Below, in pieces: positions 2,359 to 56,774 of a DNA stretch of 64,000 nucleotides. The notes below the pieces were generated by a model that did no database searches, had not been told where the DNA came from, and was given only the letters and a program-made list of their open reading frames with translations. How positions within the stretch are numbered: the stretch's first letter is position 1; the number at the start of each line of letters is the position of its first letter. The stretch comes from Candidatus Roizmanbacteria bacterium RIFOXYC1_FULL_41_16 (GTDB taxonomy: Bacteria > Patescibacteriota > Microgenomatia > UBA1406): assembly GCA_001788295.1 (NCBI GenBank), contig MGBO01000007.1, positions 14,263 through 78,262 of the forward strand, read 5' to 3'. Made by a program: the position numbers and the translations under genes.

Positions 2359-4473
2359 ATGAACTCTTTAAAAAAAAATCTAGATCTGGCCGGTCGGCCT
2401 TTAACTTTTAGCATTGGTGAATTAGCTCAGCAGGCGACTGCCGCTGTTATTACTCAATACGGCGAAACAACCATTTTAACGACCGTGGTTGTGGGCAAAG
2501 AAAATACCCAATTGGACTATTTTCCTTTAAATGTCGAATATGTGGAAAAGTTATATGCCGGTGGTCGAATCAAAGGCTCTCGTTGGATTAAGCGTGAAGG
2601 CCGTCCAAATGATAATGCCATTTTGTCCGGTCGATTAATTGACCGTTCCATCAGGCCATTGTTTGACCCGTCGTTTCGACGTGATGTTCAAATCATCAAC
2701 ACTCTTTTATCTGTTGACGGGATCAATTCACCCGAAATTACCGCAGCTCTGGGAACCGCTTGTGCTTTGTCGCTTTGTTCTATTCCTTTCAAAGGTCCGG
2801 TGGCGACTGTCAAGATTGGTTATTTGATGGAAAGCGATGGTCAGAAAGGTCATTATGTTGTCAATCCCACTTCAGACGAAGAGTTGTTGCAGGATTTTGA
2901 AATTACCTTTTCGATCACTAACGACAAAGTCGTGATGATTGAAGCCGAAGGTAATCAGTTTAGCGAAGAGCAATTTATGGAGGCTTTTTCAGTTGCTCAA
3001 AAAGAAGCAGACAGATTAAACACTCTTTTTAAAGATCTGGCCAAAGAGGCGAATGTTAAACCTTATGTCATGGAACCGGATCAGGCGATTACAATTGCCA
3101 AAGAACTGGCTCAAAAGTATCAGTCCGAATTCACTCAGGTTTTGGAGGAAAGAGCCACTAAAGAAGGAGGTAGTAATAGCACTGCTTTTGATGAGTTGCT
3201 TAATTTGATTGTCGAAAAATACGAAGTTGACGCCAAAGAGGCTGGTCGTATCAGTGAACTGGTCTTTAAGATCTTAATGAAAAAATTGGTTTTGGAGAAG
3301 AAAAAGCGAGTTGATGGCCGAGGTTTTGACGAAATTCGACCGCTTTCAGCCAAGGTGGGAATTTTACCCCGGACACACGGTTCGGCGATTTTCTCCCGCG
3401 GCAGCACTCAAGTATTGTCGATTGCGACTCTAGGCCCGCTCTCAATGCAACAATGGATTGAAAATCCTGAGGGCGAATTTATGAAAAAGTATATCCATCA
3501 TTATTTTATGCCGCCTTATTCTGTCGGTGAAACCGGCCGTAGCGGTTTTGTTTCTCGAAGAGAGATTGGTCATGGTGCCTTGGCGGAAAAAGCAGTTGAA
3601 CAGGTATTGCCGGTTGAAAATAAATTTCCTTATACCGTCAGAGTGGTGTCAGAAGTTTTATCCTCCAACGGTTCTACTTCAATGGCTTCAACCTGTGGTT
3701 CCTCTTTGGTTTTAATGGATGCCGGAGTGCCTATTAAAGAACAGGTTGGTGGAATTGCCGTAGGCATTGTTCGTAAAAACGACGATGAATATCAGCTATT
3801 GACCGATATTATTGGCATTGAGGATTTTTATGGTGAAATGGATTTCAAAGTGGCCGGGACCAAAAACGGCATTACCGCAATTCAATTGGATGTTAAAAGC
3901 TCAGGCATTACTGCCAAAATGATTAAAGAAACTCTTAAATTGGCCAAAGCCGCCAGACTGAAAGTTTTAGAGGTGATGAATAAAGCGATTTCGACCCCTC
4001 GGCCGGAAATGTCCAAATACGCTCCCAGAGTGGAAATCGTGACCCCGCCAGAGGAAAAGATCGGTGAAATTATCGGTCCGGGTGGTAAGAACATCAAAAA
4101 ACTAATTGCCGAAACAGGCTGTGACATTGATGTGGGCGAGGACGGTCGCGTTTCGATTTCCGGAGTTAATCCCCAAGCGGTTAAGCAAGCGGCCGATCGG
4201 ATTCGCAGTATCAGCAAGGTTTATGAACGGGGTGAGGCTTATACCGGCAAAGTGATTAAGGTCTTGGCTTTTGGTGCCATTGTTGAGATTGCGCCAGGCA
4301 AGGAAGGCTTACTTCACGTCAGCCGAATGGGTATGGGTTTTGTCAAAGATGCGAACGAAGTTTTCAAAATTGGTGACACCATCAAGATTATTGTTGATGA
4401 GATTGACGACAAAGGCAGACTTAAACTCAAAGCGGCCGAACCAAAAAAACCGGCTAAAGATTCTCGAGACTAA
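2359..4473 (+). CDS. pnp: polynucleotide phosphorylase
   Basis: 704 aa with two RNase PH-like halves (RPLSAKVGILPRTHGSAIFSRG; DFKVAGT), a KH region (IGEIIGPGGKNIKKL) and an S1 domain (GKVIKVLAFGAIVEIAPGKEGLLHVS). The rpsO-pnp order is conserved. Confidence 0.95.
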   Translation: MNSLKKNLDLAGRPLTFSIGELAQQATAAVITQYGETTILTTVVVGKENTQLDYFPLNVEYVEKLYAGGRIKGSRWIKREGRPNDNAILSGRLIDRSIRPLFDPSFRRDVQIINTLLSVDGINSPEITAALGTACALSLCSIPFKGPVATVKIGYLMESDGQKGHYVVNPTSDEELLQDFEITFSITNDKVVMIEAEGNQFSEEQFMEAFSVAQKEADRLNTLFKDLAKEANVKPYVMEPDQAITIAKELAQKYQSEFTQVLEERATKEGGSNSTAFDELLNLIVEKYEVDAKEAGRISELVFKILMKKLVLEKKKRVDGRGFDEIRPLSAKVGILPRTHGSAIFSRGSTQVLSIATLGPLSMQQWIENPEGEFMKKYIHHYFMPPYSVGETGRSGFVSRREIGHGALAEKAVEQVLPVENKFPYTVRVVSEVLSSNGSTSMASTCGSSLVLMDAGVPIKEQVGGIAVGIVRKNDDEYQLLTDIIGIEDFYGEMDFKVAGTKNGITAIQLDVKSSGITAKMIKETLKLAKAARLKVLEVMNKAISTPRPEMSKYAPRVEIVTPPEEKIGEIIGPGGKNIKKLIAETGCDIDVGEDGRVSISGVNPQAVKQAADRIRSISKVYERGEAYTGKVIKVLAFGAIVEIAPGKEGLLHVSRMGMGFVKDANEVFKIGDTIKIIVDEIDDKGRLKLKAAEPKKPAKDSRD

Positions 4474-49177: not shown

Positions 49178-49264
49178 GGAGGGGTGCCAGAGTGGACGAT
49201 TGGGCTAATCTCGAAAATTAGTAAGGTTGAAAGATCTTCGCGGGTTCGAATCCCGCCCCCTCCG
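49178..49264 (+). tRNA. tRNA-Ser (anticodon CGA)
   Basis: Hand fold. Acceptor GGAGGGG/CCCCTCC. Anticodon stem CTAAT/ATTAG with loop CT-CGA-AA. Long variable arm. T arm GCGGG-TTCGAAT-CCCGC. Discriminator G. No encoded CCA. Confidence 0.85.
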
Positions 49265-49272
49265 CACACACC

Positions 49273-50404
49273 ACACCGTTCACAAAATGACAGTTTTGTG
49301 TCAAAAATAGCTTGGTATATCAACACCTGGTTTTTTGGTCATCATCACCCCTGTTTTATCATTCAAATAACGGAATTTGCTATTGCAACCAGTAAATTTG
49401 GTCATTCGTCTTTTAAGCACATAGCCATTAAGCCAAAGCTTGGCGTGCTTGAGAGAATTGAAGCTTTTTAAAGAAAACAGTCTTGATTGCAGGTGAGAGT
49501 TAAAACTCTCAATAATGTTAGAGGTTAAAGGAGCTTGATGGATTCCCCGATAAGCCAATAACTCTGCTTGATTTTTGTGAATGTTCAAAAGCACCTGTTG
49601 TGCTACTTGATCCCGTCCATATTTTTGATAAAGCAATAGGAGTTGTTTGTTAAAAACTTCTTGAGAAAGTTTTTGAGAGAGAATTTTATCAATACTTTTA
49701 GAGAACTGTCTGTAAAAAGGATTAGATCTGGTTTGTAATTGCCTTCTAATGTTTTCCTTGTAGTGGTTAACACAAGTTTGTATTTTAATGCTAGGAAACA
49801 GATTTCTAGCTGCTAATTTAAGATTGTAATTATCATCACAAACAATTAGCTGAGGTCGATGATTAAGTAATCTAAAAAAAGAGAAAAATCTAGCCCAAGA
49901 ATGATAATTTTCAGCAGTATTAAGGTCAAAAACAGGTATGTCATGACGAAAGTAATCCAGGCCCCATAACAAAACGGGTTTGTAAGCAAAGCCTTTAACG
50001 TTTAAGTATTTACCATCAAAGGCAAAGATAGCTGAATAGCGCGAACAGTAGCTAAAACTGAATTGGTTATTATTGGGTAGTTTTTGTAGCTCCTCATGAC
50101 AAATGTTCCAAACCCTAGTTTTAGAGAGATTGTATTTATGAGAAAGCTTTCCAAAAGACAAACCATCTAGATGGTCATTAAGAATACCCTTACGGTTGAA
50201 TAATTTAAAATTAACAGTGAAATATCTAGAACAGGCTTTGCATTTGTAGACTAAAGATTGGTGACGTTTACGTTGAAAAATAACCTGGGTTGTAGTCCGG
50301 CATTGCGGACAAGAATATTTTTTTTCATATCCCCATTACAGCATAATTAATTGCAAAAGAACAAGCAAATATATACAATTTAACTGTCAAAAAGTGAACG
50401 GTGT
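49273..50404 (-). mobile_element. insertion sequence of about 1.13 kb with imperfect 23-bp terminal inverted repeats
   Basis: Left end acaccgttcacAAAAtgacagtt (49273..49295). The reverse complement of the right end is acaccgttcacTTTTtgacagtt (50382..50404). 19 of 23 positions match. Encloses a single transposase gene. Confidence 0.75.
49301..50328 (-). pseudogene. zinc-ribbon + DDE transposase (IS1595/IS1-like), out of frame with its ATG at an A8 tract
   Basis: The long frame continues upstream of the track ORF as EKKYSCPQCRTTTQVIFQRKRHQSLVYKCKACSRYFTV... (two CxxC pairs) with no in-frame start. The only ATG (50328..50326) is one base out of frame across the A8 run (T8 on the plus strand, 50318..50325). 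C-terminal LTSNIIESFNSHLQSRL is typical of DDE transposases. Confidence 0.65.
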
Positions 50405-50406
50405 CC

Positions 50407-50442
50407 GCAACGTAAGAAATTGCGAAGCAATTTCAACGTTGC
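50407..50442 (+). repeat. bipartite hairpin A
   Basis: GCAACGT aag AAATTGC gaa GCAATTT c(a)ACGTTGC. Confidence 0.7.
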
Positions 50443-50443
50443 T

Positions 50444-50482
50444 GGAACGCTTAAATTTGCTTTGCAAATTTATTGCGTTTCC
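50444..50482 (+). repeat. bipartite hairpin B (related to A)
   Basis: GGAACGC tt AAATTTGC ttt GCAAATTT att GCGTTTCC. Confidence 0.7.
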
Positions 50483-50615
50483 GCCATATGTTTTATTACA
50501 CTTATATACTTCAAAGTTTAAAGAATAATAGTCTATATATTGGCTATACTTCCAATCTAAAAAATAGGTTTAATGAACTCATTTATGGGCATAGCCATAA
50601 ACTCCTTAGTTTTGT

Positions 50616-50644
50616 TTGACTAAATACTAAAAATTTCATATAGT
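50616..50644 (+). promoter_or_regulatory. promoter TTGACT-N17-TATAGT for the four-gene island operon
   Basis: ttgact (50616..50621), a 17-nt spacer, tatagt (50639..50644). Confidence 0.55.
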
Positions 50645-50703
50645 AACTGTTTATAAGTAATGATTTTAGTACGATACAACTATAATAGTAAGACTATACG
50701 AAT

Positions 50704-50913
50704 ATGCCAAACAAAAAATCCACAATTGGGGATAACATAAGAAAATACCGGAACAAACTCGGTATTTCTCAAGATGTGCTTTCAAAGAGAGCGGATTTGG
50801 CTTTTCATACAATCGCCAAGATTGAAGCTGGCTCTACCCCCAACCCTACAATTGATACAGTCAAAAAAATAGCGGACGCTCTCGGCGTTTCGCTTGATGA
50901 TTTAATGAAATAA
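50704..50913 (+). CDS. small XRE-family HTH protein (R-M controller-protein-like size and position)
   Basis: 69 aa. IGDNIRKYRNKLGISQDVLSKRADLAFHTIAKIEAGSTPNPTIDTVKKIADALGVSLDDL is a classic Cro/C1 HTH. Confidence 0.85.
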   Translation: MPNKKSTIGDNIRKYRNKLGISQDVLSKRADLAFHTIAKIEAGSTPNPTIDTVKKIADALGVSLDDLMK

Positions 50914-50917
50914 AACT

Positions 50918-51667
50918 ATGACAAACTTAACCACACTTGAAAAACAAATATTTGAAAAGCTATTCCAAATGAATGGTGGTTATGTTTTGAATTTTTCAGA
51001 TCGGACAATGGGAGAATTTTTTAGAGACGATATAGGAATTGATATTTACAATCAAAAATATAACTATGCAAGCGGTTCAAAAGCTAATCGCATGCGTGGT
51101 TTGTGGTTAAAAGCAGATGAAAAAACTGTTGGTAAAAGTGTATTAAAACTTATTGAATATATTGAAAATCAAATTTTACTTGATAATCTAAAGCGAGCTG
51201 ACTTTCCGACTGAAAGAATGACCGCTGCAAAAAATATCGGGGAAAAACTTCTTGGAACGAAAGTGAAAGTTGAAAATAAATCTCAAGCCACTTTCAAGAA
51301 TGGCAATATCAATATAACTTTGCAAAAAGAAGTTTTTGACCATGTTCAAAAATTACTGAATAGTGGGCATTATTTTAATGCCGTGGAAGAAGCATATAAA
51401 ATCGTTCGGCAGAAACTTAAAGATATTACAGGAAAAGAAAAGGCGCATGAGGCTTTTGCGGAATTAAATCAAGAAAAGATTTTCGGACGCAAACCGAAAA
51501 ACGAAGCTGATAAGGACTTTTTCGAGGGAGTAAAATTTTTGCATATGTCTATTCATTTTTTACGAAATGAAAAAGCACATACTCCCGCTCAAGATTTGGA
51601 TAAAAATTTGGCGATTCATTACATATCACTCGCCAGCTTGGCGTATGACTTGATAACTAGGAAATAA
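50918..51667 (+). CDS. Ymh/TIGR02391-like protein with a HEPN-type R-x4-H motif
   Basis: C-terminal half: GHYFNAVEEAYKIVRQKLKDITG...FEGVKFLHMSIHFLRNEKAHTP...AIHYISLASLAYDLI. RNEKAH is encoded at 51563..51580. The N-terminal 120 aa or so is of unknown type. Confidence 0.65.
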   Translation: MTNLTTLEKQIFEKLFQMNGGYVLNFSDRTMGEFFRDDIGIDIYNQKYNYASGSKANRMRGLWLKADEKTVGKSVLKLIEYIENQILLDNLKRADFPTERMTAAKNIGEKLLGTKVKVENKSQATFKNGNINITLQKEVFDHVQKLLNSGHYFNAVEEAYKIVRQKLKDITGKEKAHEAFAELNQEKIFGRKPKNEADKDFFEGVKFLHMSIHFLRNEKAHTPAQDLDKNLAIHYISLASLAYDLITRK

Positions 51668-51669
51668 TT

Positions 51670-52773
51670 ATGGCAGCAAAATTTTTAAATACAAATTTAC
51701 ACAAAGCGAGCGCCGCCAAAAAAGACGAGTTTTATACTCAACTTGTTGATATTGAAAAAGAACTAAAGCACTATAAAGAACAGTTTCAAGGCAAAGTTGT
51801 TTATTGTAACTGCGATGATCCATACGAGAGCAACTTTTTTAAATACTTTGCATCCAACTTTAATGCTCTTGGATTAAAGAAGCTCATCGCCACGAGTTAT
51901 AGCGGTTCACCGATTATTGGAGGTCAATTACCGCTGTTTCAAGTAGCTGGATCAAAGGGCAAGCAACCGCTCAAAATTGAAATTAAAGAAGTGCCGGATA
52001 CAGACAAAGACGGCGCAATAAACCTTGATGATGTTAAGTATTTGCTCAAACATGACAAAAACACCGTCACACCGCTAAAAGGCAGTGGTGACTTTCGAAG
52101 TGATGAATGTATAGAACTACTAAAGCAGGCCGATATAGTTGTAACCAATCCGCCGTTTTCATTATTTCGGGATTATGTCGCGCAACTCGTCAAATATAAG
52201 AAAAAGTTTTTAATTATGGGCAATCAAAATGCAATTACCTATAAAGAAATATTTAAATTAATTAAAGAGAATAAACTTTGGCTTGGACAAAGTCTAAATG
52301 GTAAAAACATCCTTTTTCAAATTCCAGATCATTATGAAAGTTATTACAAAATTATTGATGGTAAAAAGTATGCTTTTCCAAAGGGAGTAGTTTGGTTTAC
52401 CAATCTGAATGTTCCAAAACGAAATGAAGAATTAGTGTTGTATAGAAAATATTCTAAAGAAGAATATTCCAACTTTGATAACTACAATGCGATAAATGTA
52501 GATAGGACAGAACAAATCCCCATGGATTATAAAGGTGTGATGGGAGTACCTATAACTTTTTTACATAAATACAACCCAGATCAATTTGAAATTATTGGTT
52601 TAGGAATATCGACATCAGGATTAGAAATCGGAGTTATGCCGTATAAACCAGAGCATAAAAAGTATAGGAAGGAAGTTCAAAAAAGAGGTGCAGTGGACGG
52701 AGATTTATACATGATTAAAAATGAAATTGTAGAAGTGCCTTATGCGCGTATTCTTATTAAAAATAAAAAGTAA
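51670..52773 (+). CDS. N6-adenine DNA methyltransferase, EcoRI-methylase-like family
   Basis: N-terminal KKDEFYTQLVDIEKEL...VVYCNCDDP and catalytic DIVVTNPPFS. Confidence 0.8.
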   Translation: MAAKFLNTNLHKASAAKKDEFYTQLVDIEKELKHYKEQFQGKVVYCNCDDPYESNFFKYFASNFNALGLKKLIATSYSGSPIIGGQLPLFQVAGSKGKQPLKIEIKEVPDTDKDGAINLDDVKYLLKHDKNTVTPLKGSGDFRSDECIELLKQADIVVTNPPFSLFRDYVAQLVKYKKKFLIMGNQNAITYKEIFKLIKENKLWLGQSLNGKNILFQIPDHYESYYKIIDGKKYAFPKGVVWFTNLNVPKRNEELVLYRKYSKEEYSNFDNYNAINVDRTEQIPMDYKGVMGVPITFLHKYNPDQFEIIGLGISTSGLEIGVMPYKPEHKKYRKEVQKRGAVDGDLYMIKNEIVEVPYARILIKNKK

Positions 52774-52782
52774 AAAAATAAT

Positions 52783-53892
52783 ATGAAAATCGATTTACAT
52801 AAAATTAAAATTCGAAAAGTAATTACTGGCTACAAAGATAGTGCAGAAGAAGGTGTGGAGGCTTATGATGGCAAGCTTGATATTCGCCCAAAATATCAGC
52901 GCGAATTCGTTTATAAGGAAAAACAGCGCAACGCCGTAATAGAAACTATAAAAAATAGTTTTCCGCTAAATGTGATGTATTGGATGATTAGAGAAGATGG
53001 TGGCTATGAAGTGTTAGACGGCCAGCAGCGCACCATCAGCATTGGGCAATATGTGACTGGAGATTTTTCTCTCAATGATCGTTTTTTTCATAATTTAACC
53101 AAAGAGGAACAGGACAAAATTTTAGATTATGAATTAATGATTTACTTTTGCGAAGGTACGGACAAAGAACGACTGGATTGGTTTAGGATTATCAATATCG
53201 CCGGGGAAAAATTGACCGACCAAGAAATTCGCAACGCAGTCTATACCGGGCCGTGGCTTTCGGATGCAAAACTCAAATTCAGTAAATCAAACTGTGTGGC
53301 ATATCTGGTAGCAAACGACGGCGGGCAATTAGTTAGCGGTTCACCGATACGGCAGGTATATTTAGAAACCGCTCTTTCGTGGATAAACGATGGCATGATT
53401 GAAGACTATATGGCGAAACATCAGCATGACAAAAAAGCTGATGAGCTATGGGGCTATTTTCAAGATGTAGTCGCTTGGGTGCGTAAAACTTTTCCCAATT
53501 ACAGAAAAGAGATGGCGAGCGTGAATTGGGGCGAGTTATACAACAAATTCAAAGATAAGAAATTGAATACCGTCAAACTGGAAACTCAAATTAAAAAATT
53601 AATGCAGGACGAAGATGTTACCAAAAAGTTCGGCATTTATCCGTATGTTTTGACGGGGCGAGAAAGACACCTTTCAATTCGTGCTTTTACCGACAAAATG
53701 AAGCGCGAAGCGTATGAAAGACAGGATGGCATTTGTCCATTTTGCAAGAAGCAGAAAAAAGAGAAAAAACAATGGGATATTTCAGAAATGGAAGCCGACC
53801 ACATTACCCCTTGGCACGAAGGTGGAAAAACGATTGCAGAGAATTGCCAAATACTATGCAAGGAGCATAATCGAATAAAATCCGGGGAGTAA
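52783..53892 (+). CDS. DUF262 (GmrSD N-terminal/ParB-like) domain fused to an HNH nuclease
   Basis: YQREFVYKEKQRNAVIETIKNSFPLNVMYW...VLDGQQRTISI (DGQQR). C-terminal CPFCKK...EADHITPWHEGGKTIAENCQILCKEHNRIK (HNH). Confidence 0.8.
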   Translation: MKIDLHKIKIRKVITGYKDSAEEGVEAYDGKLDIRPKYQREFVYKEKQRNAVIETIKNSFPLNVMYWMIREDGGYEVLDGQQRTISIGQYVTGDFSLNDRFFHNLTKEEQDKILDYELMIYFCEGTDKERLDWFRIINIAGEKLTDQEIRNAVYTGPWLSDAKLKFSKSNCVAYLVANDGGQLVSGSPIRQVYLETALSWINDGMIEDYMAKHQHDKKADELWGYFQDVVAWVRKTFPNYRKEMASVNWGELYNKFKDKKLNTVKLETQIKKLMQDEDVTKKFGIYPYVLTGRERHLSIRAFTDKMKREAYERQDGICPFCKKQKKEKKQWDISEMEADHITPWHEGGKTIAENCQILCKEHNRIKSGE

Positions 53893-53942
53893 GCCGAGTG
53901 TTGGCGAAAATTTAGTAATCCCTAATATATTTGTAGAAAAAC

Positions 53943-53971
53943 TTGACACGCTTGTTTGAATTTGCTACATT
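53943..53971 (+). promoter_or_regulatory. near-consensus promoter TTGACA-N17-TACATT for the second island operon
   Basis: ttgaca (53943..53948), a 17-nt spacer, tacatt (53966..53971). Confidence 0.6.
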
Positions 53972-53994
53972 ACTTTCATAATAGGGTTATTTAT

Positions 53995-54390
53995 ATGAAC
54001 ACAGTACCAAATCTATACAAAAAAATACAGGATTTCCGCCAAAAGGCCGGAATGACGCAAAAGGAACTTGCGGAGAAGGTCGGTTTATCCCGTGGGGCGG
54101 TTACTTCAATAGAACAAGGGAAGCGTAAGGTTACAGTTGAAGAATTGCTCAAATTTTGCGAAGCGTTTAGCTGCTCTTATGCAGATTTTTTGGCTTCCGA
54201 TCAGAAGGATAAGCCGGCGGCGGAAAGTGGAAAAAAAAATGTCCGCGAGCTTTATGACGCGTACAAAGATAAATATCAAGGCAAAACATTGCCTTATCCG
54301 CAGAATGATAACCCCCTTGATGATTATTTGCGTCAGGTGAACCCATATTATTACCCGTTTGCCAATAACGAAATCCGATATGAGCAATGA
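53995..54390 (+). CDS. XRE-family HTH protein with a C-terminal extension of about 65 aa
   Basis: IQDFRQKAGMTQKELAEKVGLSRGAVTSIEQGKRKVTVEELLKFCEAF, followed by a low-complexity, Tyr/Pro-rich tail. ATG at 53995 is preferred over the track start at 53956. Confidence 0.8.
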   Translation: MNTVPNLYKKIQDFRQKAGMTQKELAEKVGLSRGAVTSIEQGKRKVTVEELLKFCEAFSCSYADFLASDQKDKPAAESGKKNVRELYDAYKDKYQGKTLPYPQNDNPLDDYLRQVNPYYYPFANNEIRYEQ

Positions 54391-55471
54391 TCCTAAACAA
54401 TCGAAAAAGCTGGAGCTAACAGAGTTAGCCCCAAGGAAACCGGAAGAAGGTGGTGAGGGTGCTTCTTTGCCAATCTCTATTGAGCTTAATCAAAAGCGCA
54501 GACAGCATAATCAAAATTTTGAAAAAAGCTTGCGACATGCACGAATTGAGCTTATTAAAGATATTCAGCAAAAGCGCGGCTCCAAGGTATTTGTATTTTA
54601 CTCTCACGATACTTTGGACGCGCAACACGCAGAAATTTTCTTTGAACTCCTACAGGAAGTTGGCAAACAAAAAAAACTTGATCTCTTTTTATTAAGCCCT
54701 GGTGGATTTGCCGACCAAGCTTTCAATATGTCGCGCTGGTGCAGACAATACGCCACGCAATTTAATGTAATCATTCCTTACTACGCAAAAAGTGCCGCGA
54801 CCTTGCTATCTTTGGGCGCAGATACGCTTTTGATGGGGCCTTCATCGGAACTTGGACCAATTGATCCTCAAATTCGTATACCCGATGAATATGGGCGGAC
54901 AATGCAAGTATCAGCACTTTCCATCAAAGACGCCTTGAAAGTCATTGAAGGTCTAACCGAAGACAATCAAGAAAAAGCTTTGAAATACATGCCCCTGATT
55001 GAGAAAATTGATCTCAAGGTGCTTGGGCAATATGACCGCGCGATACAAAGCGCAAAACAATACGCTTCTGACCTCTTGCACATGAGCGGCCTCTTGAAAG
55101 ATAAGGATATCGAAGAAGTGGACGTTGATGATTCAAAAAAGAAAGTGCCAAAACATAAAAACATCGCACACCAGCTAACCGAGGGCTATTATTCTCACGG
55201 CTATGCGATAGGTACGGATAAAGCGCAAGAACTTGGATTTAATGTCGTCTGCCCGGGCAATGACGGCTTTGACCCCGAAGTTTGGAAGTCGGTTTGGCGG
55301 CTACATAAGCTATATGATGATATGATGAGAAATAATCGCAAAGAGCGGCTTCTTACGGAAAATTTGGTTGAATACCGGCAGGTTATGACTGTTTTGGAAA
55401 CCGATGCCTTCTCTGTGCCTGTTGAGAAGAATTTTATAAAGGATTTATCGCAAAAATATGGTAAAAAATAA
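54380..55471 (+). CDS. SDH-family (serine dehydrogenase proteinase) Clp/S49-fold serine protease
   Basis: LDLFLLSPGGFADQAF and YYAKSAATLLSLGADTLLMGPSSELGPIDPQI match my recollection of the SDH/SppA-like signature. The ATG at 54380 overlaps the upstream gene by 11 nt. Confidence 0.7.
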   Translation: MSNDPKQSKKLELTELAPRKPEEGGEGASLPISIELNQKRRQHNQNFEKSLRHARIELIKDIQQKRGSKVFVFYSHDTLDAQHAEIFFELLQEVGKQKKLDLFLLSPGGFADQAFNMSRWCRQYATQFNVIIPYYAKSAATLLSLGADTLLMGPSSELGPIDPQIRIPDEYGRTMQVSALSIKDALKVIEGLTEDNQEKALKYMPLIEKIDLKVLGQYDRAIQSAKQYASDLLHMSGLLKDKDIEEVDVDDSKKKVPKHKNIAHQLTEGYYSHGYAIGTDKAQELGFNVVCPGNDGFDPEVWKSVWRLHKLYDDMMRNNRKERLLTENLVEYRQVMTVLETDAFSVPVEKNFIKDLSQKYGKK

Positions 55472-55874
55472 TATCACACAATTAGCAGTAGAAGAAAAGA
55501 GCAAGCCGATTTTGCAATTTTCCGTTTTATGCGACGGCGTTGCAAAGCAGGGCAACAAGCCAGTATTTATTGGTGTATTCAGCAATTTTGTACGCACTGG
55601 TGTTATTGCCCAATTCTTTATCGTAAACCGATGGATTTACGGCAAAGGAACATTCAAGCAGAAAATTGCAATAAAGGATCCCGATTTACAAAAAACTATA
55701 GCTGAAATTCCAGATCAAGAATTTATTTTGAAAGAAGAAATTAACAGTGCGGACATAGTCAATGGTTTTGTAAATGTAAATTTTGAAAAACCAGGCGTAT
55801 ATTGGGTAGAGATTTCTTTAGACAATAAATTGTTAATGTCGTATCCATTACCGGTGTACGAACAGCAGAAGTAA
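55458..55874 (+). CDS. hypothetical 138-aa soluble protein, probably beta-rich
   Basis: Overlaps the protease gene by 14 nt. No motif recognised. Confidence 0.55.
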   Translation: MVKNNITQLAVEEKSKPILQFSVLCDGVAKQGNKPVFIGVFSNFVRTGVIAQFFIVNRWIYGKGTFKQKIAIKDPDLQKTIAEIPDQEFILKEEINSADIVNGFVNVNFEKPGVYWVEISLDNKLLMSYPLPVYEQQK

Positions 55875-56096
55875 CTAAACCCGCCCGCCACCCATTGATT
55901 TTGTGGCTCCGCAAAATAATTTCAGGGCGAATCCCAAGCAGTCGATCAAAATTATGTGGAGGTTGGTGGTCAATGTAAACTATAAGGACCAAATTATTCC
56001 AGACCTACATACTTCGCAATAAGCAAAAAGCTAGTGGGTGATTGTCTTAACCATCTCTTAAGCAATCCTTAAGAAAGTTAAGTTATACTAGCAATA

Positions 56097-56774
56097 ATGA
56101 GGATTCTTCTGATTGAAGACGAGCACAAACTGGCTAACGCAATTAAACGAGCATTAGAGTTACAAAAGTATGCCGTCGATGTCGTTTATGATGGAGAGGA
56201 AGGCTTTAATTTGACCATTGGAGAAGAAGCATGCGATCTGATTATTTCTGACATTATGTTACCCAGTCTCGACGGAATTGAGTTTTGCAAAAGAATTCGT
56301 CAGGAAGGAATTCATACCCCCGTTTTGATGTTAACCGCCAAGGGACAGATTCAGGACAAAGTCGTCGGACTGGATAATGGGGCCGATGACTATATGGTTA
56401 AACCATTCTCGTTTGATGAGCTTTTTGCTCGCGTGCGAGCGTTGGTACGCAGACCCAAGGGAGAACGTGATCCGATGTTAAAGATTGCGGATTTGAGACT
56501 AGACCCTGTTAACTTCAAAGTTATTAGAGCCGGTAAACAAATTAAACTTTCAACTAGAGAATTCTCCATTCTTGAGTACCTAATGAGAAATCAAAATAAA
56601 GTAGTTGGTAAAAAGCATTTAATTGCTCATGTTTGGGATTATGATGCCAATATATTACCAGGAACAGTTGAGGTGCATATCAAAAATATCAGAGATAAAA
56701 TTGACAAACCTTTTACCAAAAGGCTCATTCATACAGTTCGCGGATTTGGATACGAAATAAAAGTCGAAAATTAA
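56097..56774 (+). CDS. OmpR-family response regulator
   Basis: MRILLIEDE, DLIISDIMLPSLDG, and the winged-helix C-terminus (VRGFGYEI). Confidence 0.92.
   Translation: MRILLIEDEHKLANAIKRALELQKYAVDVVYDGEEGFNLTIGEEACDLIISDIMLPSLDGIEFCKRIRQEGIHTPVLMLTAKGQIQDKVVGLDNGADDYMVKPFSFDELFARVRALVRRPKGERDPMLKIADLRLDPVNFKVIRAGKQIKLSTREFSILEYLMRNQNKVVGKKHLIAHVWDYDANILPGTVEVHIKNIRDKIDKPFTKRLIHTVRGFGYEIKVEN

Follow-up and report, generated by a model that had tools for sequence, protein, structure and literature searches.

The window analysed here is a 64,000-nucleotide stretch of contig MGBO01000007.1 from Candidatus Roizmanbacteria bacterium RIFOXYC1_FULL_41_16, a member of the RIFOXY..._FULL_41 population found in the groundwater of the Rifle aquifer. 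Our subject is the gap in this window between the gene for tRNA-Ser(CGA) and the gene of a two-component regulator. An earlier reading made from the sequence alone had listed for this gap an insertion sequence (IS), structured repeats, two operons led by helix-turn-helix (HTH) genes, a methyltransferase, nucleases and a protease, and the matches in Pfam, PADLOC and NCBIfam support this gene content. Bacteria of the Candidate Phyla Radiation (CPR, or Patescibacteria) have tiny genomes that are mostly without CRISPR, and it is of interest how such bacteria gain and replace their defences against phages. The locus provides a clean example at the population level, with two alleles at one site in otherwise identical strains.

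The locus and its genes

The left end of the segment is set by the tRNA gene, for which ARAGORN and Rfam agree with the sequence-only reading (Table 1). To the left of it lie genes for a secreted SNase-like protein, dnaG and rpoD. From 56097 on the right come a response regulator (56097-56774), a histidine kinase and a MacAB-like efflux set, and the housekeeping or core-like character ascribed to both flanks holds. No integrase or recombinase had been visible in the segment, and all the open reading frames (ORFs) of at least 100 aa in 49266-56096 do fall to other families. A tblastn search with two large serine recombinases against the window gave as its only match the antisense of the tRNA. 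An Rfam scan of the island likewise returned the tRNA as its sole match, and the tandem hairpins that follow it fit no Rfam family.

Table 1. Features of the locus in window coordinates, followed by related loci in other genomes, listed by the window positions that they match
Feature	Position	Strand	Basis and remarks
tRNA-Ser(CGA)	49178-49265	+	ARAGORN (sole tRNA found); Rfam 49178-49264, 51.4 bits; left anchor of the variable locus
IS256/Mutator-family IS, 1,138 bp	49266-50403	-	Pfam Transposase_mut, NCBIfam IS256, terminal inverted repeats
tRNA-proximal arm	50404-50581	+	Common to both alleles at 92%; two hairpins and the first 36 GIY-YIG codons
Tandem hairpins	50407-50442 and 50444-50481	+	RNA folding, 50407-50481
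Non-homologous cargo proper, 5.4 kb	50582-55980	+	blastn of L025 against the window, junction alignments
Leader module	50600-51673	+	Promoter-like site 50616-50644 (promoter scan), HTH, Ymh
XRE-type HTH, candidate C protein, 69 aa	50704-50913	+	Pfam HTH_3 1.4e-15; PADLOC Control_protein 1.8e-11
Ymh/TIGR02391 protein, 249 aa	50918-51667	+	Pfam Hypoth_Ymh 4.7e-16; TIGR02391 9.5e-28, above cut-off
M.EcoRI-family N6-adenine DNA methyltransferase, 367 aa	51670-52773	+	Pfam EcoRI_methylase 3.4e-140, full length; PADLOC MTase_II 2.5e-122
Putative restriction endonuclease, 369 aa	52783-53892	+	Pfam GmrSD_N 4.9e-17, HNH 2.4e-7; PADLOC REase_II PDLC03418 4.1e-130, full length
Trio module	53931-55873	+	Promoter TTGACA-17-TACATT at 53943-53971, then three genes
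XRE HTH, 131 aa	53995-54390	+	Pfam; weak match to the PADLOC capH profile hidden Markov model, 2.9e-7
SDH-type ClpP-fold serine protease, 363 aa	54380-55471	+	Pfam; NCBIfam Clp_like_SDH 1.7e-23; phrog_11747 1.8e-39 (function unknown)
DUF6941 all-beta protein, 138 aa	55458-55874	+	Pfam
Cargo 3' tail	55875-55980	+	Holds the 17-mer 55878-55894; homology with the Peregrinibacteria copy to 55951
Right-hand recombination tract	55981-56023	+	Homologous between alleles, with single-nucleotide differences
Woesebacteria, L044-L049 (some contigs from the same samples)	53931-55873 exactly		Promoter to DUF6941 stop; unrelated neighbourhood; 85% nt identity
Peregrinibacteria, L050	52741-55951		Restriction endonuclease and trio; 87% nt identity
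ENA contig, L056	53784-55870		71% nt identity; homology begins within the 3' end of the restriction endonuclease gene, a remnant of it
WWE3, L057/L058			Trio; 75% nt identity
Minisyncoccia, L059/L060			Ymh, protease and DUF6941 (protease-DUF6941 pair behind Ymh), by a Dam-type restriction-modification system; about 68% over 402 nt
Patescibacteria, L051	50600-51673		HTH and Ymh leader, heading a different MmeI-like methyltransferase/S operon; 87-90% nt identity

Two alleles between the same flanks

For the comparison of alleles, exact copies of the flanking proteins were looked up in public assemblies, and blastn was used to compare the contigs returned with the window. When JGI metagenomes were scanned with the 3' end of the tRNA, a single contig was obtained, L025 (2,002 bp), which spans an entire alternative allele. 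The majority of the returned contigs carry the same island as the window. Three contigs from the same aquifer (L005, L008 and L009) follow the 10.8 kb left flank at 99.7-99.99% identity (99.991% in L005) up to the end of the tRNA, skip the IS, resume at about 92% over 50404-50578 and then diverge. L025, also from this aquifer, is 100% identical over the tRNA (102 bp) and gives the order of the alternative allele, which is 1.77 kb long: the tRNA, an arm of 178 bp, 1.6 kb of unrelated DNA, and a return to the window sequence at 55981. The segment had been proposed to be accessory and this proves correct, as the DNA from the tRNA to the response regulator is not the same in these four contigs as in the window. 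The presence or absence of the island among close relatives thus takes the form of two alternative fillings of the site. An empty site, with the tRNA directly beside the regulator, was sought in the related contigs and none was found, only the 1.77-kb allele, and a test for an empty site across species by means of the SNase gave four relatives at 42-53% identity with no conserved synteny.

The block from the end of the tRNA to 56023 behaves as one haplotype, and a second haplotype, made up of a GIY-YIG gene and an ORF of 434 aa, fills the same place. At the exact 3' end of the tRNA the identity between the two falls from 99.99-100% to 92%, and it is back at 100% from 56024 into the response-regulator gene. 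In the 178 bp of the arm that follows the tRNA there are 14 single-nucleotide polymorphisms (SNPs), and the adjoining flank of more than 10 kb has essentially none. Because so many SNPs cannot arise in place, the block must come from a diverged lineage. The places where assemblies break are those expected, because the two haplotypes diverge there: the breaks are at 56007 and 56025 in contigs L018 and L019, and at 49265 in other assemblies.

The second allele also corrects the anatomy of the island, which had been described as one unit starting at the 3' end of the tRNA. The left edge of the cargo lies inside the GIY-YIG gene, which is intact in the other allele (89 aa in L025, Pfam 8.9e-18). 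The distance from the tRNA to the start of the cargo at 50582 is 178 bp when the IS is left out, and it is the IS itself that abuts the tRNA end (49265/49266). In the window the truncated GIY-YIG frame runs over 50473-50619 (48 codons and a stop); 36 of its codons are inside the shared arm and similarity to the intact protein reaches 50595 (tblastn, aa 1-41, 83%). What lies to the right of the tRNA is, in order, the IS, a native arm, the cargo proper and a tract of recombination, with the limits given in Table 1. In place of the cargo the alternative allele has the remaining part of the GIY-YIG gene and the 434-aa ORF (ORF434, at L025 524-1828). This ORF is an orphan in a defence hotspot, as Pfam, PADLOC, NCBIfam and PHROGs all gave no match for it and the fetched loci include no relative.

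The arm begins with the two tandem hairpins, which fold with a minimum free energy of -34 kcal/mol and a z of -5.1 in the window (z of -7.0 in L025). In the first hairpin there are paired compensatory substitutions between the alleles (GCAACGU/ACGUUGC vs CCACGC/GCGUGG, and AAAUUGC/GCAAUUU vs AAAUCGC/GCGAUUU), and the second is the same in both. Placed directly after a tRNA, they could be a terminator of the tRNA, a structure used in its processing or a signal at the DNA level. The tRNA-Ser itself is 100% identical in L025, where ARAGORN gives a gene of 90 nt. Its CCA end is encoded in the IS-free allele (CTCCG-CCA, L025 100-106) and not in the IS-bearing one (CTCCG-CAC, window 49262-49268), and therefore the tRNA of the window depends on the CCA-adding enzyme that is encoded about 8 kb upstream.

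Contigs from several independent assemblies (L003, L004, L007, L013, L015, L016 and L017) begin or end at about 51811-51945, in the methyltransferase gene, or at about 54885-54921, in the protease gene, and no repeat accounts for these ends. It is possible that they mark further sub-variants or drops in coverage. A gap of 220 bp in the protease gene of L012 was considered as a deletion and rejected, being a run of N.

A mosaic of modules

The clusters formed at 90% identity by the Ymh and protease proteins take in Woesebacteria, Peregrinibacteria, Portnoybacteria and other Patescibacteria, and the loci obtained from such genomes match different parts of the cargo (Table 1). The segment had been read as a single integrated element. 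This does not stand, since its modules have separate relatives at 71-90% nucleotide identity in other phyla. Judged from these matches, the island is a mosaic of at least three or four independently mobile pieces. At least four pieces differ in history, namely the IS, the leader, the pair formed by methyltransferase and nuclease, and the trio, and this fits their differing composition. The segment had been thought by eye to be more A/T-rich than its flanks, and this is true of its left half, where the IS (GC 0.344) and operon 1 (GC 0.360) are both below the minimum of 0.382 for windows of the same size outside the island. It is not true of operon 2 (0.408, with a window mean of 0.412). Codon usage, which had been suggested as another way to set the island apart, does not do so, as its likelihood does not separate the island from the core genes.

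The IS has a Mutator/IS256-type DDE transposase and terminal inverted repeats (23 nt, at 49273-49295 and 50382-50404, 83% complementary), as is characteristic of the IS256 family. The transposase matches Pfam Transposase_mut at 4.8e-9 (36 bits, cut-off 21) and NCBIfam IS256 at 4e-16, the latter below the equivalog cut-off, and in NCBIfam it also matches a Zn-binding variant and IS1249. TCCGC stands on either side of the element (49261-49265 and 50404-50408), a duplication of only 5 bp against the 8-9 bp expected of IS256. The transposase frame (50335-49301) is without a start codon, and an ATG at 50328 is out of frame across a run of A8. A9 instead of A8 (window 50320-50335, - strand) would restore an intact ORF of about 347 aa, whose N-terminal part is a Zn-ribbon, and gene callers give only an ORF of 286 aa (50161-49301). 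The missing start could be a frameshift mutation, a homopolymer error in the assembly or a site of programmed slippage, and as it reads the IS is probably defective. It is missing from L005, L008, L009 and L025, where 49265/49269 is joined straight to 50404. In the exact-protein look-up the transposase was found at this locus only, in this population, and the same was true of the nuclease of operon 1. The IS is a separate, simple insertion exactly at the 3' end of the tRNA and flanked by TCCGC.

Operon 1 is tightly packed, with intergenic gaps of 2-9 nt, of which the 9 nt lie between methyltransferase and nuclease, and its domains fit a controller-regulated system of a type II-like restriction-modification (R-M) kind. 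The catalytic NPPF motif is visible in the methyltransferase sequence. The nuclease consists of an N-terminal DUF262/ParB-like domain with a DGQQR motif and a C-terminal HNH domain, and a PDB sequence search with it gave no relative. The Ymh protein carries the R-x4-H motif of HEPN proteins (LRNEKAH) and sits inside the R-M operon. Proteins of this family are predicted RNases of the HEPN superfamily that are typical of R-M operons and have been proposed to act as PrrC-like, second-line suicide RNases (PMC3710099). In such a system the HTH protein would probably serve as the C-protein timer of the operon and the methyltransferase would place the m6A marks that protect host DNA. The DUF262 and HNH nuclease would cut DNA that is unmethylated, and the predicted Ymh RNase would probably be the back-up suicide factor of the PrrC type.

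Operon 2 is the trio of HTH, protease and DUF6941 genes, which overlap by 11 and 14 nt. The protease retains the SPGG and KSAAT motifs of the ClpP fold, and a PDB sequence search with it returned nothing. Its distant phage homologues (24-43% identity, hypothetical proteins) occupy accessory slots of temperate phages, by the integrase or after the tail genes, a context that is suggestive only. The AlphaFold2 model of the DUF6941 protein (pLDDT 86.8) is a beta sandwich of 8 strands, for which Foldseek gave only generic beta-sandwich matches (the Wzt carbohydrate-binding domain and PDE6D/UNC119, TM of about 0.5). The DUF6941 family is small, with 535 clusters at 50% identity (E up to 1e-3), and was not found in the plasmid or viral-contig collections. 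A distant member whose context was looked up lies on a contig of 2.5 kb, which includes none of the DNA upstream of it. Our best guess is that the trio may be an autoregulated, protease-based defence module, or one that resembles abortive-infection or toxin-antitoxin systems. A role in defence or addiction is suggested because it has its own promoter, coupled genes, independent mobility and usual neighbours that are R-M, HEPN and toxin-antitoxin genes.

tRNA genes and recombinases at related loci

The position of the segment beside a tRNA gene had been given weight from the start, and the link is probably no coincidence. In four of the five other cargo loci examined there is a same-strand tRNA gene 0.2-1.6 kb upstream of the modules, namely Asn (L056), Gly(ccc) (L057), Ser(gct) (L059), and Pro with Gly(tcc) (L044), and the fifth, L050, has tRNA-like 3' fragments at both of its ends. 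Because such genomes have an estimated one tRNA per 20 kb or so, this adjacency is very unlikely to arise by chance. The tRNA probably matters for the origin of the cargo, of which the window would hold a stripped-down copy that is without a working integration apparatus.

Three other loci come with a large serine recombinase nearby. The one in L059 (534 aa, 176-1780, - strand; Pfam Resolvase, Recombinase and Zn_ribbon_recom) was missed by the gene caller and runs antisense through the whole of tRNA-Ser(gct) (181-268), so that its last 30 or so codons are the complement of the tRNA. A serine recombinase ORF that ends as the antisense of a tRNA is an unusual arrangement. In L051 a large serine recombinase lies between two R-M cassettes. 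In the related metagenome-assembled genome L021 (17167-20499) the orthologous tRNA-Ser(cga) is followed by an orphan ORF of 317 aa, an ORF of 141 aa and a large serine recombinase; the SNase of this contig, whose record is labelled Gammaproteobacteria, is 53% identical to that of the window, and the same tRNA site is variable there too.

The Peregrinibacteria locus L050 has a direct repeat of 146 nt (127 identical) at 139-284 and 4017-4162, which we call repeat X, on either side of an island made up of a truncated methyltransferase gene, the restriction endonuclease gene and the trio. The two copies end in the 3' ends of different tRNA-Ser genes, the left being cga-like and the right gct with CCA. 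The left copy folds only as a degenerate tRNA-like shape of 62 nt, which Rfam and ARAGORN at default settings both missed, and repeat X was not found in viral contigs.

Inverted repeats were seen in L059 (263-422/4338-4497 and 4658-4816/8501-8659) and in L051 (7670-7981/12969-13280 and 554-667/5808-5921), and an arm of L051 is 87% identical to L050 3749-4018. In each of these two unrelated metagenome-assembled genomes a defence operon of 4-5 kb lies between inverted repeats that are 99-100% identical and 114-312 nt long, near the large serine recombinase. These operons may be invertible or mobile defence cassettes, and short-read assemblies cannot show inversion. Apparent evidence of an inversion in L060 was rejected, since a de Bruijn graph walk that passes through identical arms can give the same picture. 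Cassettes of this kind in other CPR genomes, bounded by repeats and associated with recombinases, may explain how the modules come to lie beside tRNAs, and the case for the descent of our cargo from recombinase-borne cassettes is circumstantial.

How the locus may have arisen

The reading that we favour, and hold to be likely, is that the locus is a strain-variable, mosaic defence islet at a site flanking a tRNA, with alleles that are exchanged by homologous recombination and a cargo that comes from a CPR-wide pool of cassettes. The steps in identity suggest that swapping of the alleles by homologous recombination in the population is most likely. On the left the crossovers would fall within the tRNA gene, which does not vary, and on the right they would fall upstream of the regulator gene; an exchange of this kind would require no integrase. 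The cargo would at some time have replaced the remaining GIY-YIG gene and whatever came after it. Its source would have been a pool of defence cassettes that move between the phyla of the CPR and usually land just 3' of tRNA genes, and the copy in the window would have lost the recombinase and the cassette arms. The cargo modules recur in Woesebacteria, Peregrinibacteria and WWE3, and some of these come from the same samples of the aquifer.

There are a number of points that weigh against this reading or against parts of it. The identity steps that point to homologous exchange come from a small number of short contigs, and the right junction of the alternative allele is seen in one contig of 2 kb (L025). 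The junctions at 50582 and 55980 are without repeats, microhomology or target duplication, and the direction and mechanism of the original insertion are not visible in them. No contig seen has the IS without the cargo or the cargo without the IS, and this perfect linkage hides the order of the two events. The window is also without a detectable recombinase, cassette arm or repeat X, and has at most a weak trace of the hairpin discussed below. As to the functions proposed, nucleases with DUF262 domains are often modification-dependent, and it may be that the one in operon 1 is no classical type II enzyme of the methylation-sensitive kind; in L050 this nuclease is intact beside a methyltransferase of which only the last 99 codons are left. 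Nothing more than its context speaks for a role of the trio in defence: PADLOC (v2) gave no match for the protease or DUF6941, and generic matches only for the HTH, and we found no paper on DUF6941 or one that ties PF01972 to defence.

A different explanation, close to that of the sequence-only reading, is a classical island that entered by site-specific integration at the 3' end of the tRNA-Ser, after which the integrase was lost and attR decayed to a 17-nt repeat. This would account for the position of the island at the tRNA 3' end and for the repeated occurrence of the same cargo beside tRNAs in other phyla, and it gains from repeat X around the cargo of L050 and from the recombinases beside tRNA-Ser in L059 and L021. 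The evidence in the window itself goes the other way, beginning with the missing recombinase, of which there is not even a remnant. The proposed repeat is the 17-mer at 55878-55894, and its match to 49250-49266 at 12 of 17 positions is numerically correct but no better than chance. Within the window, nine further 17-mers score at least 12/17 against the tRNA end. With the 17-mer fixed, 12/17 is reached in 16 of 1000 dinucleotide shuffles of the 222-nt spacer (p of about 0.016); with any 17-nt window of the tRNA 3' half allowed, it is reached in 202 of 1000 (p of about 0.2). A gapped local alignment is equalled in 27 of 500 shuffles (p of about 0.05). An unbiased search of the 12 kb downstream for a repeat of the last 45 nt of the tRNA found none, 81 of 100 shuffles doing as well. 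Direct repeats of the tRNA 3' end that flank the island, as att sites would, are thus not seen.

The 17-mer lies about 90 bp inside the cargo, and because the homology of the window with L050 covers it and continues to 55951, it is not at the end of an element. The C-rich 3' tail that contains it goes with the trio in L050, and a more diverged form of this tail also follows the trio of L056, where the 3' end of the tRNA-Asn differs. In favour of att, the window has CCCGCCC in the 17-mer as well as in the tRNA-like end, and L050 has CCCACCC in both; we have set this G/A covariation aside as support for att, since it concerns a single site in a variable tail. We conclude that the 17-mer is not an att site. 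Further along the tail, 55957-55970 resembles the G-rich hairpin at the cassette ends of L050 and L051 in a weak alignment only, and may be a weak, degenerate trace of it; the fold of the tail as a whole is ordinary (z of -0.5). With the left edge of the cargo in the GIY-YIG gene rather than at the tRNA, and with modules that differ in history and composition, we regard a classical island as unlikely.

It could also be that the island is ancestral at this locus and that the 1.77-kb allele was derived from it by replacement of the defence genes. The region would then vary without being a recent gain of this lineage. Both alleles are present in the aquifer and the island allele is the commoner among the contigs read, operon 2 is host-like in composition, and ORF434 is itself an orphan of unknown origin. 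Against this, the truncation of the GIY-YIG gene in the window marks the left cargo junction as derived, operon 1 and the IS have a GC content below that of any comparable window, and all of the cargo modules have their relatives in other phyla, which makes an ancestral island decidedly unlikely. It is highly improbable that the island was brought in or put together by the IS256-type element, whether through composite transposition, one-ended transposition or an IS-mediated rearrangement. In favour of this, the IS is restricted to the island allele, where it is perfectly linked with the cargo, and it shares its AT-richness with operon 1. Against it, a single copy is present and the far end has neither another copy nor an inverted repeat, the transposase frame is without a start codon, the element has the look of a simple insertion, and the native arm, also present in the IS-free allele, separates it from the cargo.

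One further and much more tentative proposal concerns the trio. It might be a new, self-contained, protease-based anti-phage or abortive-infection system that spreads between CPR phyla in cassettes which home to the 3' side of tRNAs and are moved or inverted by large serine recombinases and long terminal repeats, with the window holding a stranded copy that has no recombinase. We consider this possible but doubtful. The trio is nevertheless worth testing, since it is conserved, independently mobile, habitually found among R-M genes and absent from the defence catalogues.

Comparison with known systems

The island resembles the integrase-bearing islands and prophages that target tRNAs in that it lies immediately 3' of a tRNA, has its genes in the same orientation and is accessory in content, and the related cargo of L050 has the direct repeats ending in tRNA-Ser 3' ends that would be looked for in such an element. 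It differs from them in that the window has no integrase or significant att repeat, and the recombinases near its relatives are large serine recombinases, not tyrosine integrases.

Operon 1 compares well with C-protein type II R-M systems that include a HEPN RNase, following the logic of PrrC and EcoprrI (PMC3710099), in its order of HTH, HEPN (Ymh), methyltransferase and nuclease, its tight spacing, its Rx4H motif and its PADLOC matches. It departs from these in a nuclease of DUF262/ParB-like and HNH domains, which is more usual in modification-dependent enzymes like GmrSD, and in a leader of HTH and Ymh that is swapped between different types of R-M system.

Control pairs of a repressor and a protease are known near defence and mobile elements, as with CapH/CapP of CBASS and ImmR/ImmA of ICEBs1. 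The trio is like these in layout only, with an XRE HTH gene translationally coupled to a protease gene and then a small third gene. Its protease is a ClpP-fold serine protease of the SDH type and not a zinc metallopeptidase of the ImmA/IrrE type, and it has no recognised effector downstream.

Defence islands occupy strain-variable hotspots between conserved core genes, and among these are hotspots that flank tRNAs. The locus shares with them a small defence cluster at a fixed chromosomal position, alternative cargo in close strains, a partly atypical composition and homology on both sides that permits homologous recombination. It is unlike the typical case in the 5.4 kb size of its cargo, in the CPR genome of about 1 Mb that carries it, in the edge that lies within a GIY-YIG gene and in having as its sole mobility gene that of a probably defective IS. 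Genomic islands with R-M systems have been reported from Patescibacteria (PMC12455944). A small mosaic defence island at a variable site flanking a tRNA is thus of a known kind, and one known in Patescibacteria as well.

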